NCBI RefSeq assembly: GCF_041248615.1
Contig: NZ_CP158426.1
Direction: 5' to 3' (one strand)
Length of the DNA stretch: 64,000 nt
Origin: Escherichia coli
GTDB taxonomy: Bacteria > Pseudomonadota > Gammaproteobacteria > Enterobacterales > Enterobacteriaceae
A model generated the notes under the pieces. That model searched no databases. It was not told the DNA's origin and saw nothing but the letters and a program-made list of their open reading frames with translations. The translations under genes and the position numbers were made by a program. Shown here piece after piece: positions 4,092-35,372 of this stretch; position 1 is the stretch's first letter; every line of letters begins with the position of its first letter.

Positions 4092-5486
4092 ATGCCATTT
4101 AAAAAACTCTCCCGACGCACCTTCCTGACGGCAAGCTCGGCGCTTGCCTTCCTCCATACCCCTTTCGCCCGTGCACTTCCTGCCCGGCAAAGCGTTAACA
4201 TTAACGACTACAACCCTCACGACTGGATCGCCTCATTTAAACAAGCCTTCAGCGAAGGGCAAACGGTCGTCGTGCCCGCCGGATTGGTTTGCGACAATAT
4301 CAACACCGGCATCTTCATTCCTGCAGGTAAAACGTTACACATCCTTGGAAGCCTGCGCGGCAACGGCAGAGGGCGATTTGTCTTACAGGACGGCAGCAAG
4401 GTGACAGGGGGGGAGGGCGGCAGTATACATAACATCACCCTGGATGTGCGTGGTTCTGACTGCACCATCAAAGGGCTGGTGATGAGCGGCTTTGGCCCGG
4501 TGACGCAGATCTATATCGGCGGCAAAAACAAACGGGTCATGCGCAACCTGACCATCGATAACCTCACCGTTAGCCACGCTAACTACGCCATCTTACGCCA
4601 GGGATTTCATAACCAGATTATCGGTGCCAATATCACCAATTGTAAGTTCAGCGACTTACAGGGCGACGCCATTGAATGGAACGTGGCAATTAACGACAGT
4701 GATATTTTGATCTCCGACCATGTGATCGAGCGCATCAACTGTACTAACGGCAAAATCAACTGGGGCATTGGCATCGGCCTTGCGGGAAGTACCTACGATA
4801 ATAATTATCCGGAAAACCAGGCAGTGAAAAACTTTGTCGTGGCGAATATCACGGGATCAGATTGTCGGCAACTGATCCATGTTGAAAATGGTAAACATTT
4901 TGTTATCCGTAATATCAAAGCTCGTAATATCACGCCGGATTTCAGTAAGAAAGCAGGTATTGATAACGCCACAGTTGCTATTTATGGTTGTGACAACTTT
5001 GTGATTGATAATATTGAAATGATTAATAGTGCCGGGATGTTAATTGGCTATGGGGTAATTAAAGGCAAATATCTCTCGATACCGCAGAATTTCCGAGTGA
5101 ATGATATTCAACTGGATAATACTCATCTTGCTTATAAATTGCGCGGCATCCAAATCTCCGCCGGGAATGCTGTCTCCTTTGTGGCGCTGACTAACATTGA
5201 GATGAAGCGTGCGTCGCTTGAGCTACACAATAAACCGCAACACCTTTTTATGCGAAATATCAATGTGATGCAGGAATCCTCTGTTGGACCCGCATTGAGC
5301 ATGAACTTCGACATGCGCAAAGACGTACGCGGTGTCTTTATGGCGAAAAAAGAAACACTGCTGTCTCTTGCAAATGTTCATGCGGTGAATGAAAAAGGAC
5401 AAATCTCCGTCGATATCGACAGGATTAATCACCATATTGTTAATGTGGAGAAGATTAACTTTAGATTGCCAGAACGGAGGGAGTAG
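4092..5486 (+). CDS. wcaM: Colanic acid biosynthesis protein WcaM (signal peptide, beta-helix-like)
   Basis: 464-aa ORF with N-terminal Tat-like signal ([14 protein letters not shown]); last gene of the wca cluster before galF. Confidence 0.85.
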
Positions 5487-22817: not shown

Positions 22818-23993
<1,176 letters not shown>

Positions 23994-24034: not shown

Positions 24035-24138
24035 TTACTTGCGTAACAATTCATTATTTTTATCAATTATCCTATAGCATTCATGAGGATTATCGCTAAA
24101 CTATGCGGACTTGGAAATTTCCGTCAGTTAGGGTAATG

Positions 24139-25119
24139 ATGAGAGTAGAAAATAATAATGTTTCTGGGCAAAACCATGACCCGGAACAGATTGATTTGAT
24201 TGATTTACTAGTGCAGTTGTGGCGTGGCAAGATGACAATCATCATTTCCGTCATTGTGGCTATTGCCCTGGCTATTGGATATTTGGCAGTAGCGAAGGAG
24301 AAATGGACGTCAACAGCAATTATCACTCAGCCCGATGTGGGGCAAATTGCTGGCTATAACAATGCCATGAATGTTATCTATGGTCAGGCTGCACCGAAAG
24401 TATCGGATTTGCAGGAGACGTTAATTGGTCGCTTCAGTTCTGCCTTCTCTGCATTAGCAGAAACGCTGGATAATCAGGAAGAACCAGAAAAACTTACCAT
24501 CGAACCTTCTGTTAAGAACCAGCAATTACCATTGACTGTTTCTTATGTTGGGCAAACTGCAGAGGGCGCACAAATGAAGTTGGCCCAATACATTCAGCAA
24601 GTTGACGATAAAGTGAATCAAGAGTTAGAAAAGGATCTCAAGGACAACATTGCTCTGGGACGGAAAAACTTGCAGGACTCTTTAAGAACGCAGGAAGTGG
24701 TTGCGCAGGAGCAGAAAGATCTGCGTATCCGTCAGATTCAGGAAGCGTTGCAGTATGCGAATCAGGCGCAGGTGACAAAACCGCAAATTCAACAGACTGG
24801 CGAAGATATCACACAAGATACGTTGTTCCTTTTGGGGAGCGAAGCGCTGGAGTCGATGATTAAGCATGAAGCGACCCGTCCGTTAGTGTTCTCACCAAAC
24901 TACTATCAGACTCGTCAAAACCTGCTGGATATCGAAAGCTTAAAAGTTGATGATCTTGATATTCATGCTTACCGTTATGTGATGAAACCGACGTTACCTA
25001 TTCGTCGCGATAGCCCGAAAAAGGCAATTACCTTGATTCTGGCGGTGCTGCTGGGCGGCATGGTTGGCGCGGGGATTGTGCTGGGGCGTAACGCTCTGCG
25101 TAATTACAACGCGAAGTAA
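24139..25119 (+). CDS. wzzB: O-antigen chain-length determinant WzzB (Cld)
   Basis: Recognised N-terminus MRVENNNVSGQNHDPEQIDLIDL, coiled-coil periplasmic region and C-terminal TM; ORF track start 24103 likely an extension. Confidence 0.85.
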   Translation: MRVENNNVSGQNHDPEQIDLIDLLVQLWRGKMTIIISVIVAIALAIGYLAVAKEKWTSTAIITQPDVGQIAGYNNAMNVIYGQAAPKVSDLQETLIGRFSSAFSALAETLDNQEEPEKLTIEPSVKNQQLPLTVSYVGQTAEGAQMKLAQYIQQVDDKVNQELEKDLKDNIALGRKNLQDSLRTQEVVAQEQKDLRIRQIQEALQYANQAQVTKPQIQQTGEDITQDTLFLLGSEALESMIKHEATRPLVFSPNYYQTRQNLLDIESLKVDDLDIHAYRYVMKPTLPIRRDSPKKAITLILAVLLGGMVGAGIVLGRNALRNYNAK

Positions 25120-25215: not shown

Positions 25216-25820
25216 TCACTGATGCCGTTTACGCAGGTTCTCAATTACCGTCGTTAAATCCAGATCCTGATCCTGCAACAACACCAGCAGGTGATACATC
25301 AAGTCAGATGCTTCGTTGGTCAGTTCAAAGCGGTCATGCACCGTTGCGGCCAGTGCGGTTTCCACGCCTTCTTCGCCCACTTTCTGCGCAATGCGTTTGG
25401 TGCCGCTGGCATACAGTTTGGCTGTGTAAGAGGTTTCCGGGTCGGCAGATTTGCGTTCGGCGAGCAGTTGTTCCAGTTGATACAGGAACAGCCACTGGTG
25501 AGCGGTGTCGCCGAAGCAGCTGCTGGTACCTTTGTGGCAGGTTGGCCCGATTGGATTTGCCAGCACCAGTAACGTGTCGTTGTCGCAGTCCGGAGCAATA
25601 CTCACCACATTGAGAAAATTGCCCGACGTTTCGCCTTTGGTCCACAGTCGCTGTTTAGTGCGCGAGAAGAAGGTGACATTGCCGCTTTCGATGGTTTTGT
25701 CCAGAGCTTCCGGGGTCATATAGCCCAGCATTAACACTTCGCCAGATACCGCGTGTTGCACAATCACCGGCATAAGTCCGTCGGTTTTTTCCCAGTCCAG
25801 TTCGCGACGTTGTTGTTCTG

Positions 25821-25827
<7 letters not shown>
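25216..25827 (-). CDS. hisI: Bifunctional phosphoribosyl-AMP cyclohydrolase / phosphoribosyl-ATP pyrophosphatase HisIE
   Basis: 203-aa ORF, recognised; last gene of his operon. Confidence 0.95.
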
Positions 25828-27905
<2,078 letters not shown>

Positions 27906-27906
<1 letters not shown>

Positions 27907-28972
27907 TACAGCACTCCTTTCGACGAGGGCAGGGTATCGCCTTCCACGCGGATGGCCTGGCGCAGGGTACGACCAAAGGCTTTGAACAGGCTTTCTACAC
28001 GGTGATGATCGTTTTTACCTTTGGTTTTCAGGTGCAGCGTCACGCCCATGGTGTAAGAGAGTGAGCGGAAGAAGTGTTCGATCATTTCAGTGCTGAGATC
28101 GCCCACGCGCTGGTAGGTAAACTCGGCTTTATATTCCAGGTGCGGGCGACCAGAGATATCCAGCGCGCAGCGGGCAAGGCATTCGTCCATCGGTAGCACA
28201 AAACCAAAGCGACAAATACCGCGTTTATCGCCGAGGGCAATTTTTAACGCTTCGCCCAGCGCCAGGCCGGTATCTTCGACGGTGTGGTGATCGTCGATAT
28301 AGAGGTCGCCTTTGACGTTGATTTCCATGCGGAAACCGCCGTGGGTGGCGATCTGATCCAGCATATGATCAAAGAAGCCAACGCCGGTGTTAATCTTGCT
28401 GCCACCTTCGCGATCCAGCCACACCTGGACGTCAATCTGCGTCTCTTTGGTGTTGCGCACTACATGGGCGTAACGGTCTCGTTTAGTGAGTTGCTCGCCA
28501 ATCATCGGCCAGTTCAGGGTTTCGCGGTCGTAGCGTAAACCATTAATGCCCATGTTTTCCGCCAGTTGAATGTCGGTCGCGCGATCGCCAATCACATAAC
28601 TGTTGGCACGATCCATCGCTTGCTCAGCCAGATAACGCTCCACCAGTTTTACTTTCGGCTTACGGCAGTCGCACTCATCGGCGGGCAGGTGCGGACAAAT
28701 CAGCACTTCATCAAACTGCACGCCTTGCGAGGTGAAGATCTGCATCATCAGGTTGTGCGGGCCATCAAAATCCGCCTGTGGGAAACTTTGTGTTCCAAGG
28801 CCATCCTGATTAGTGATCATCACCAGTTTGTAGCCCGCTTTTTGCAGCTTCAGCAGCTCCGGGATCACGCCCGGTTCAAAGGCGAGTTTGTCAAAACGGT
28901 CTACCTGAAAATCACTCGGCGGTTCGCTAATCAGGGTTCCATCGCGATCGATAAAAAGATACTTCTGACTCA

Positions 28973-28973
<1 letters not shown>
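27906..28973 (-). CDS. hisB: Bifunctional histidinol-phosphatase / imidazoleglycerol-phosphate dehydratase HisB
   Basis: [16 protein letters not shown]-terminus; 355 aa. Confidence 0.95.
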
Positions 28974-31344
<2,371 letters not shown>

Positions 31345-31349
31345 GGCGA

Positions 31350-32249
31350 TCACTCCATCATCTTCTCAATCGGCAGCACCAGGATTGAACTGGCACCCAG
31401 CGCTTTCAGTTTTTCCATCGTTTCCCAGAACAGGGTTTCGCTACTGACCATGTGCATCGCTACGCGCTGTTGATCACCTGCCAGCGGCAGAATAGTTGGG
31501 CGTTCGGCACCTGGCAGCAGGGCGATGACTTCATCCAGACGTTCAGTCGGTGCGTGCATCATGATGTATTTTGATTCGCGCGCCTGGATCACGCCCTGAA
31601 TACGGGTCAGCAGCTTGTCGATCAGTTGCTGTTTAGATTCTTCCATTTCGCCATCGCGCTGGATCAGGCAGGCTTTCGAGCGGTAGATAACTTCGACTTC
31701 GCGCAGGCCGTTAGCTTCCAGCGTGGCACCGGTGGAAACCAGATCGCAAATCGCATCCGCCAGTCCGGCGCGCGGGGCGACTTCAACAGAACCGTTCAGT
31801 AAGCAGGATTTAAAAGAGATGCCTTTCTGGTCGAGATAACGCTTGAGCAGGTGAGGATAAGAGGTGGCGATACGTTTACCGTTTAAGGAGAGCGGACCGT
31901 CCCAGGCTTCATCAACCGGCGTTGCCAGCGAAAGGCGGCAGCCGCCGAAATCCAGTCGACGCAGGGTAAAGTAGCGCGGATCTTCACCCTGGGCTCGGCG
32001 GTTAAGCAGCTCTTCTTCCAGCACGTTTTCGCCGATAATCCCAAGGTCTACCACGCCGTCCATTACCAGACCGGGAATGTCGTCGTCACGCACGCGCAGA
32101 ATATCAATCGGCATGTTTTCTGCCATCGCGATCAGGCGCTGGGTGTGAAGATTGATTTTAATGCCACAGCGCGCCAGCAATTCGCGTGAGTCATCACTTA
32201 AACGGCCGGATTTCTGCATAGCTATGCGTAAACGAGTGTTGTCTGTCAT
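31350..32249 (-). CDS. hisG: ATP phosphoribosyltransferase HisG
   Basis: [20 protein letters not shown] track start 32288 is an upstream extension. Confidence 0.95.
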
Positions 32250-32294
32250 TTTCTTATTCCTCTTTAAACCTGTCTGAACCGTTATCAACAGCGC

Positions 32295-32333
32295 AATAAA
32301 AAAGCCCCCGGAAGGTGATCTTCCGGGGGCTTT
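32295..32333 (-). terminator. his operon attenuator terminator hairpin
   Basis: GC-rich inverted repeat agcccccggaag/cttccgggggct followed (minus strand) by a U-run; lies between hisL and hisG. Confidence 0.8.
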
Positions 32334-32394
32334 CTCATGCGTTCATGCACCACTGGAAGATCTGAATGTCTTCCAGCACACATCGCCTGAAAGA

Positions 32395-32445
32395 CTAGTC
32401 AGGATGATGGTGATGATGGTGGTGTTTAAATTGAACGCGTGTCAT
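32395..32445 (-). CDS. hisL: his operon leader peptide HisL (MTRVQFKHHHHHHHPD)
   Basis: Minus-strand reading atgacacgcgttcaatttaaacaccaccatcatcaccatcatcctgactag: seven consecutive His codons. Confidence 0.9.
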   Translation of the reverse strand: MTRVQFKHHHHHHHPD

Positions 32446-32690
32446 AAAAGTCTCTGTGAATGTTTATTCAACTGATGTCTTTTAACCTAAACCACTTTCA
32501 CGTTAGAAAGCAAGGGCTTTTTTATATATTTTATGGCGATGGATTTGTTTAATGAATGAGCGGGGAAAGGAGGGGGCTAAGAGGACTGTCCTCTAACCTG
32601 ACGGCACCAAAAATAGCGAAGCCTGGATTTTCGTCTCACTGACAATATCTTGATCTACAAACTAATTAATAAATAGTTAATTAACGCCCA

Positions 32691-32727: not shown

Positions 32728-32979
32728 ATGCGTACAATTAGCTACAGCGAAGCGCGTCAGAATTTGTCGGCAACAATGATGAAAGCCGTTGAAGATCATG
32801 CCCCGATCCTTATTACTCGTCAGAATGGAGAGGCTTGTGTTCTGATGTCACTCGAAGAATACAACTCGCTGGAAGAGACGGCTTATCTACTGCGCTCCCC
32901 CGCTAACGCCCGGAGATTGATGGACTCAATCGATAGCCTGAAATCAGGCAAAGGAACGGAAAAGGACATTATTGAGTGA
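32728..32979 (+). CDS. yefM: Antitoxin YefM (type II TA system)
   Basis: 83-aa [24 protein letters not shown] recognised; overlaps yoeB by 4 nt. Confidence 0.92.
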
Positions 32980-33230
32980 AACTAATCTGGTCTGAGGAGT
33001 CATGGGATGATTATCTGTACTGGCAGGAAACAGATAAGCGAATTGTTAAAAAGATCATTGAACTTATCAAAGATACCCGCAGAACACCATTTGAAGGTAA
33101 GGGGAAGCCAGAACCCCTGAAGCATAATTTGTCAGGCTTCTGGTCCCGACGCATTACAGAGGAGCACCGTCTGGTATACGCGGTTACCGACGATTCACTG
33201 CTCATTGCAGCATGTCGTTATCATTATTGA
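32976..33230 (+). CDS. yoeB: Toxin YoeB (ribosome-dependent mRNA interferase, RelE/YoeB family)
   Basis: 84-aa [24 protein letters not shown] recognised. Confidence 0.92.
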
Positions 33231-35112: not shown

Positions 35113-35198
35113 AGAAAAATTATTATGACAAGCCTCTCATTCTCTTGTCATTTCCCCCCCATTTAGGCACAATGCGCCGCTGTCAAAAAATGACTAAA

Positions 35199-35230
35199 AA
35201 CCGACGTTTCATCAGCGTCGGTTATTTTTT
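35199..35230 (+). terminator. Putative terminator after yeeY
   Basis: accgacg tttcatcag cgtcggt hairpin followed by tattttttg. Confidence 0.5.
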
Positions 35231-35372
35231 GCTTCAAACCAATCATTCATACCAAGAGGCCGGGCTTCGTACCGGATAGATATTTACTAAAAATCGACAG
35301 TTGTTGTCGCTGAGGAATCCAAAAAAATGGGGCAATTTTTTGCTTACGCGACGGTTATCACCGTAAAGGAGA

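Follow-up and report, generated by a model that had tools for sequence, protein, structure and literature searches.

The his operon leader of an Escherichia coli chromosome segment: hisL and an attenuator identical to those of K-12

Does the DNA immediately upstream of hisG in this 64,000-nt stretch of an Escherichia coli chromosome (the window, whose first letter is position 1) contain the his operon leader itself, with hisL and its attenuator, or only a look-alike? A preliminary description had assigned the minus strand of 32295-32445 to a leader with seven His codons, followed by a GC-rich terminator hairpin and a U-run ahead of hisG. Direct reading of the minus strand bears this out: the seven His codons lie at 32424-32404, the hairpin with its U-run is found at 32333-32295, and the span is exact, beginning at the leader ATG and finishing where the U-run ends. 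All the features that define such a leader at the level of sequence are present, and the element is the hisL attenuator itself and not just something that resembles it. We conclude, with a probability of about 0.97, that the window carries the E. coli his operon leader (hisL plus attenuator), controlled by classical ribosome-mediated transcription attenuation. The coordinates of its features are collected in Table 1.

The ATG of hisL is at 32445 and its TAG stop ends at 32395; the minus strand reads ATGACACGCGTTCAATTTAAACACCACCATCATCACCATCATCCTGACTAG, with the translation MTRVQFKHHHHHHHPD followed by the stop. When both strands of the whole window were searched, the His run of hisL was the sole run of at least four CAY codons, and by our own arithmetic about 4e-6 seven-codon CAY runs would be expected by chance in 128,000 positions. 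The number of His codons per leader, counted in 101 leaders from other genera, is seven in 18 and six in 83. The Shine-Dalgarno sequence of hisL is weak (…CACAGAGACTTTTATG). Two open reading frames that overlap the leader, one of 23 aa on the plus strand (32404-32475) and one of 32 aa on the minus strand (32285-32383), were rejected as being without support.

Table 1. Positions of the his leader elements, the predicted RNA helices and the his structural genes in the window
Feature	Position	Strand	Description	Basis
Probable hisLp promoter	32484..32513	-	-35 TTGCTT (32513-32508), 18-nt spacer, -10 TAGGTT (32489-32484)	Sequence, identical to K-12
hisL leader peptide gene	32395..32445	-	16 codons plus TAG, product MTRVQFKHHHHHHHPD	Read from sequence; equals annotated hisL of XJ6.1 (WP_001364200.1) and K-12 (b2018)
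Seven contiguous His codons	32404..32424	-	CAC CAC CAT CAT CAC CAT CAT; regulatory codons, ribosome stall site when His-tRNA is scarce	
A:B helix	32377..32412	-	A 32412-32400 (within His/Pro codons) with B 32389-32377; -12.2 kcal/mol	MFE fold; in Rfam consensus structure
his pause hairpin	32403-32386	-	CCUGA...UCAGG, inner part of A:B	Sequence, fold
Predicted his transcriptional pause site	32374..32384	-	G(-10) 32384, U(-1) 32375, G(+1) 32374	G-10 Y-1 G+1 consensus
B:C alternative helix	32368..32395	-	GUCUUUCAG (32395-32387) with CUGGAAGAC (32376-32368)	-11.8 kcal/mol
C:D helix	32353..32376	-	CUGGAAGA (32376-32369) with UCUUCCAG (32360-32353)	-12.7 kcal/mol
D:E antiterminator helix	32317..32362	-	GAUCUUCC (32362-32355) with GGAAGAUC (32324-32317), extension to terminator 5' arm CCCC	-15.8 kcal/mol
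E:F attenuator, intrinsic terminator	32295..32337	-	32337-32320 with 32314-32297	-34.7 kcal/mol
hisG Shine-Dalgarno	32264-32259	-	AAGAGG	Sequence
his structural genes hisGDCBHAFI	25216..32249	-	Intact, ATG starts, no internal stops	
hisG	31350-32249	-	299 aa	
hisD	30040-31344	-	434 aa	
hisC	28973-30043	-	356 aa	
hisB	27906-28973	-	355 aa	
hisH	27316-27906	-	196 aa	
hisA	26579-27316	-	245 aa	
hisF	25821-26597	-	258 aa	
hisIE	25216-25827	-	203 aa	

The top match of an Rfam scan of the whole window was His_leader (RF00514) at the leader, located at 32419-32296 on the minus strand with 131.6 bits (E = 2.6e-23; gathering cut-off, 49 bits) and covering positions 1-126 of the 126 in the model. The window is 100% identical to hisL of K-12 MG1655 over a stretch that begins 85 nt before the ATG, takes in promoter, leader and terminator, and stops where the U-run ends. 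Over the 291 nt of promoter, leader and spacer there are two substitutions only, both in the spacer between terminator and hisG: position 32290, 5 nt past the end of the terminator tail (32295), is T here and G in K-12, and position 32253, 3' of the hisG Shine-Dalgarno sequence and 4 nt ahead of the ATG, is G here and C in K-12. Both spacer alleles recur in no fewer than six other natural isolates, whose sequence matches that of the window at 100% identity along 521 nt. Of 5426 complete E. coli genomes, 5423 contain a match to the leader, whether the 521-nt or the 236-nt query is used, and RefSeq genomes label the matched region "hisL: his operon leader peptide" or "His leader region". The preliminary description had spoken of a textbook attenuation leader, a view backed by the full-length Rfam match, the identity to K-12, the RefSeq annotation and the conserved alternative pairings described below.

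Several further Rfam matches over the hairpin were discarded. A plus-strand His_leader match at 32191-32338 scored 32.9 bits, under the cut-off of 49, and is the palindromic terminator seen from the other strand; Thr_leader (22.8 bits) and Phe_leader (21.5 bits) were both under their cut-off of 55; and matches to RcsR1, Spot 42 and miRNA families lay far under their gathering scores. Three of the 5426 complete E. coli genomes gave no leader match. Some E. coli genomes have up to six places that match the leader, one such place being plasmid-borne, and the NEB Turbo strain has two "His leader region" features.

The leader had also been taken in the preliminary description as proof of the orientation and the intactness of the operon. 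The first part stands, since the leader fixes the his operon on the minus strand, whereas intactness does not follow from the leader alone and came from a separate check, in which all eight genes were full-length. The eight his proteins have their annotated lengths and 99-100% identity to the XJ6.1 proteins, and the junctions between the genes are tight or overlapping. A gap of 145 nt separates the hisL stop (32395) from the hisG ATG (32249) on the same strand. An extended "hisG" starting with TTG at 32288 was rejected in favour of the annotated ATG at 32249 behind AAGAGG.

The neighbouring genes stand in the annotated order yeeY, yeeZ, yoeB and yefM, then divergent hisL, hisGDCBHAFI, wzzB and ugd. 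The yefM-yoeB toxin-antitoxin pair (32728-32979 and 32976-33230, plus strand) runs divergently from hisL. Within E. coli the intergenic region varies on its yefM side, with coverage of at least 80% in 4211 of 5423 genomes for the 521-nt query versus all 5423 for the 236-nt promoter-plus-leader query. On the other side of the operon, the O-antigen cluster begins at a JUMPstart element (RF01707, 6814-6852, plus strand, 61 bits), and between this element and the his operon there are full-length open reading frames at 21172-22578, 22827-23993 and 24103-25119 (plus strand). The second and third are ugd and wzzB by the XJ6.1 annotation; the first is presumably gnd, going by the established order of genes.

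Further along, an STnc240 sRNA family match (35158-35232, plus strand, 68 bits, above the Rfam threshold) is situated just past yeeY, upstream of yoeI/plaP. Positions 41163-64000 are 99.8% identical to E. coli XJ6.1, by whose annotation they contain sbmC, yeeA, tmaR, a complete pdu microcompartment operon for propanediol utilisation, pduF, pocR, a cobalamin riboswitch, a 438-nt hypothetical open reading frame and cobU-cobS-cobT. The riboswitch (RF00174) was located at 60572-60746 on the plus strand with 109 bits, and an STnc230 sRNA family match (59422-59505, minus strand, 71 bits, above the Rfam threshold) falls within or beside the pocR region. As we understand the reference genomes, K-12 has the CP4-44 prophage, not pdu, between yeeX/tmaR and cobUST, and Salmonella presumably has the cbi genes between the cobalamin riboswitch and cobU, where the window has the single small open reading frame instead.

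Upstream of hisL, we take the TTGCTT and TAGGTT hexamers to be hisLp by comparison with the known his promoter. Transcription would then start near 32478-32476, about 30 nt upstream of the hisL ATG. A start near 32478 agrees with the published leader RNA of 180 nt (PMC10989985), since 32478 to 32298 is about 181 nt. A scan of the window for consensus promoters and terminators called neither hisLp nor the attenuator, and we ascribe both misses to the rules of the scan, so that these negatives should not be read as absence. The promoter was missed because its -10 hexamer, TAGGTT, matches only three of six consensus positions; the attenuator was probably missed when extension of the stem through A-U and G-U pairs consumed the U-run and the tail test failed.

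Folding of the minus strand, which the preliminary description had suggested as a check, gave both the terminator and the antiterminator helices. The energies in Table 1 are those of isolated helices. The core of E:F is a 14-bp GC-rich stem, AAAGCCCCCGGAAG / CUUCCGGGGGCUUU (32333-32320 / 32314-32301), closed by the 5-nt loop AUCAC (32319-32315). A U6 run at 32303-32298 is followed by AUU, so that the tail UUUAUU after CUUCCGGGGGCUUU ends at 32295. The published his terminator has a 14-bp stem, a 5-nt loop and a U-run and forms the end of a 180-nt leader RNA (PMC10989985); the stem, loop, U-run and leader length measured here agree with that description. D:E and E:F are mutually exclusive because the 5' arm of the terminator contributes its GGAAG and CCCC bases to D:E. 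The minimum free energy of the 161-nt region is -68.4 kcal/mol, compared with -37.8 ± 4.1 for 200 dinucleotide shuffles (z = -7.4), none of which was as good.

A pause module is predicted within the same region. We set the exact pause nucleotide by comparison with the known his pause together with the consensus, which places U(-1) 11 nt downstream of the pause hairpin. The G(-10), U(-1) and G(+1) positions are conserved in 96, 100 and 100 of the 101 leaders. Both the G-10 Y-1 G+1 consensus and the hairpin-dependent hisL pause have been described (PMC9291695).

The wider distribution of the leader was assessed by one scan in which species-representative genomes were searched for a pattern of six His codons and then Pro-Asp-stop; it returned 120 loci. 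About 103 of them encode a peptide of 15-16 aa ending in H6-7-P-D, with a hisG start 127-220 nt downstream, and these come from the Enterobacterales (Escherichia, Citrobacter, Enterobacter, Yersinia, Serratia, Pantoea, Erwinia, Proteus, Photorhabdus and others), Aeromonas and Pasteurella. Synonymous CAC/CAT positions vary among these leaders while the H6-7-P-D-stop ending is kept. Four of the 120 loci, which have neither an in-frame ATG upstream nor a hisG after them, were excluded as chance or poly-His matches. In four Serratia leaders, segments D and E are set apart by about 10 inserted nt. In Pectobacterium betavasculorum (positions 4514-4760 of its locus) the stop-to-hisG distance is 220 nt, and the spacer contains, after the attenuator, a second hairpin-plus-T-run, AAAAACGTTCCCGACGTTTTTTT.

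Both conformations were projected onto an alignment of 100 distinct leaders plus the window (alignment A2). With structures derived from one member of the alignment, 95.9% of cells are paired in the terminator conformation (A:B + C:D + E:F) versus 44-59% in slid controls, in which the partners were moved by 1-3 columns, and 95.6% are paired in the antiterminator conformation (B:C + D:E) versus 42-60% in the controls. Helix by helix, pairing across the 101 leaders amounts to 95.4% for A:B, 98.1% for C:D, 97.3% for E:F, 98.5% for B:C and 93.7% for D:E. Six pairs of the terminator conformation have changed on both sides, five of them in E:F (e.g., C-G 69 / U-A 31 and G-C 69 / A-U 16), and four pairs of D:E have done so. 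The A:B, B:C and C:D helices show one-sided (G-U) variation with no double compensatory changes, because the compared leaders are closely related and highly conserved. Alignment column 76, an A or G in segment C, pairs with a U in D (A-U 76, G-U 24) and with a U in B (U-A 74, U-G 24); judged from the alignment, this polymorphism reflects a dual constraint that both conformations would impose. The spacer between terminator and hisG is the least conserved part of the alignment.

Equilibrium folding was rejected as a model of the switch, as the terminator always wins: in full-leader folds its probability is 0.999 wherever the ribosome is masked (codons 8-17). This outcome suggests that the switch is kinetic and would be decided during transcription, and equilibrium folding was replaced by prefix folds and isolated helix energies. 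Prefix folds computed with no ribosome form A:B, then C:D, then E:F. With the His codons masked, B:C becomes the minimum free energy structure at L = 78-84, once C emerges, and at L = 130, where E has been made and F has not (the prefix ends at 32316), the minimum free energy structure is B:C + D:E at -28.8 kcal/mol. With the ribosome placed at the stop codon, C:D forms first, yet at L = 130 the minimum free energy structure also has D:E, marginally favoured; plain minimum free energy modelling by itself does not reproduce the high-histidine termination branch, which is a limit of the modelling. The modelled support for the switch comes from the prefix folds and the helix competition only, not from full-RNA thermodynamics.

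The mechanism that we propose joins the sequence elements, the helices with their energies, the conservation and covariation, the K-12 identity and the intact operon observed here to a histidine response, pausing, folding order and promoter taken over, by analogy, from published work on the identical K-12 sequence and on Salmonella. Transcription would start at hisLp, some 30 nt ahead of the hisL ATG. Past the A:B pause hairpin, with the RNA 3' end near 32375, RNA polymerase would pause and wait for a ribosome to load on hisL, thereby coupling translation to transcription. Were charged His-tRNA plentiful, the ribosome would pass the seven His codons to the TAG and cover A and B, so that C:D pairs and E is left free for F; E:F with the U-run would then terminate transcription about 50 nt upstream of hisG and release a leader RNA of about 180 nt. 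Were His-tRNA scarce, the ribosome would stall in the His run over A only, B:C would form as C emerges, and D would be free to form D:E. Once D:E had formed, the terminator would come too late and the polymerase would continue into hisGDCBHAFI. If there were no translation, A:B, C:D and E:F would all form, leading to termination.

This scheme follows the model of Johnston et al., which PMC4046918 restates: A:B, C:D and E:F stand against B:C and D:E on a leader of 16 codons, seven of them for His. In the same paper the his operon is derepressed by a stop codon placed at whichever His position, and when translation is blocked, termination depends on E:F (PMC4046918). That read-through rises when charged His-tRNA is limiting, and that termination needs E:F, was established experimentally with the Salmonella and K-12 sequences (PMC4046918; PMC10989985). 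No sequence feature of the window contradicts the attenuation model.

Among the alternatives, the one that survives best holds that attenuation at this leader is not purely ribosome-driven and has a DnaA-dependent layer, as proposed in 2023 (PMC10989985). In that work dnaA mutants lose attenuation, the leader RNA is enriched by RIP, and four "rDnaA box" sites with two mismatches each were found in the K-12 leader (PMC10989985); since the leader of the window is identical to that of K-12, the K-12 result applies here equally. The proposal nevertheless comes from a single study whose own abstract hedges ("possible", "might bind"; PMC10989985), the boxes are degenerate, being mismatched at 2 of 9 positions, and an earlier Salmonella study, as it is cited in PMC10989985, put the DnaA effects down to hisR dosage. 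Moreover, the stop-codon stalling and translation-inhibition results are already explained by the classical model (PMC4046918), and we consider a DnaA contribution unlikely. Equally doubtful is an additional layer on the leader RNA in the broader sense, be it protein binding (DnaA at an "rDnaA box") or a trans role of the abundant, ~180-nt terminated RNA or of the HisL peptide; the window adds nothing specific on such layers because its sequence is identical to that of K-12.

A much slighter chance attaches to the idea that the leader is intact and that 32290 T and 32253 G alter basal read-through or hisG translation relative to K-12. In its favour, no other difference from K-12 occurs in 291 nt, and the first site closely follows the terminator tail while the second precedes the hisG ATG by 4 nt. 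Against it, neither site belongs to a helix or is covered by the Rfam model, the alleles are shared with the six or more natural isolates that match the window at 100% along 521 nt, and the terminator-to-hisG spacer in which they lie is the least conserved in the alignment. The weakest reading, that the His run is a chance or non-translated open reading frame and the hairpin an ordinary terminator or insulator between the divergent yefM-yoeB and hisG, could draw on the weak hisL Shine-Dalgarno sequence, on the simple scans that called no promoter or terminator at the leader and on a hairpin palindromic enough for the sub-threshold plus-strand His_leader match (32.9 bits), yet it is effectively refuted already by the only run of at least four His codons in 64 kb, by an H6-7-P-D-stop that is kept ahead of hisG in about 103 genomes despite variation at synonymous CAC/CAT positions, by yefM-yoeB transcription being directed away from the hairpin, by the conservation of both alternative conformations and by the requirement for leader translation in published mutagenesis (PMC4046918).

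Ribosome-mediated attenuation at hisL is thus the reading that we retain. The finding is an already known and ordinary one, and a copy identical to the reference raises no new question. Its value is that of an annotation anchor: it marks the E. coli chromosome segment that runs from the O-antigen cluster through gnd, ugd, wzzB and the his operon to yefM-yoeB and onwards, it fixes the minus-strand orientation of the his operon, and it indicates that regulation of the operon is wild-type.

The his attenuator is one of the founding examples of both ribosome-mediated attenuation and hairpin-stabilised pausing, and the model of A:B, C:D and E:F versus B:C and D:E was worked out in the Salmonella enterica his leader. 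To our knowledge, the his leader operates with no separate repressor protein. The nearest known system is hisL of K-12 MG1655 (b2018), which has the same peptide, helices A-F, pause module, placement relative to yefM and hisG, and hisLGDCBHAFI order; the wider context is unlike that of K-12, as the window has the pdu-pocR-cobUST region about 9 kb beyond the leader. The S. enterica his leader likewise has 16 aa, seven consecutive His codons, an E:F attenuator and the B:C plus D:E antiterminator logic (PMC4046918). It is an orthologue from another genus with small differences in loop and spacer sequence, a distinction drawn without an explicit Salmonella alignment, the close relatives in the alignment being Citrobacter, Enterobacter and E. 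albertii. The trpL, leuL, thrL, pheL and ilvL leaders work on the same principle, with a short open reading frame rich in cognate codons, a pause hairpin, and antiterminator and terminator helices that exclude each other, and differ from the his leader in their regulatory codons and RNA family. The his leader stacks three helix pairs (A-F), whereas trpL has four segments.
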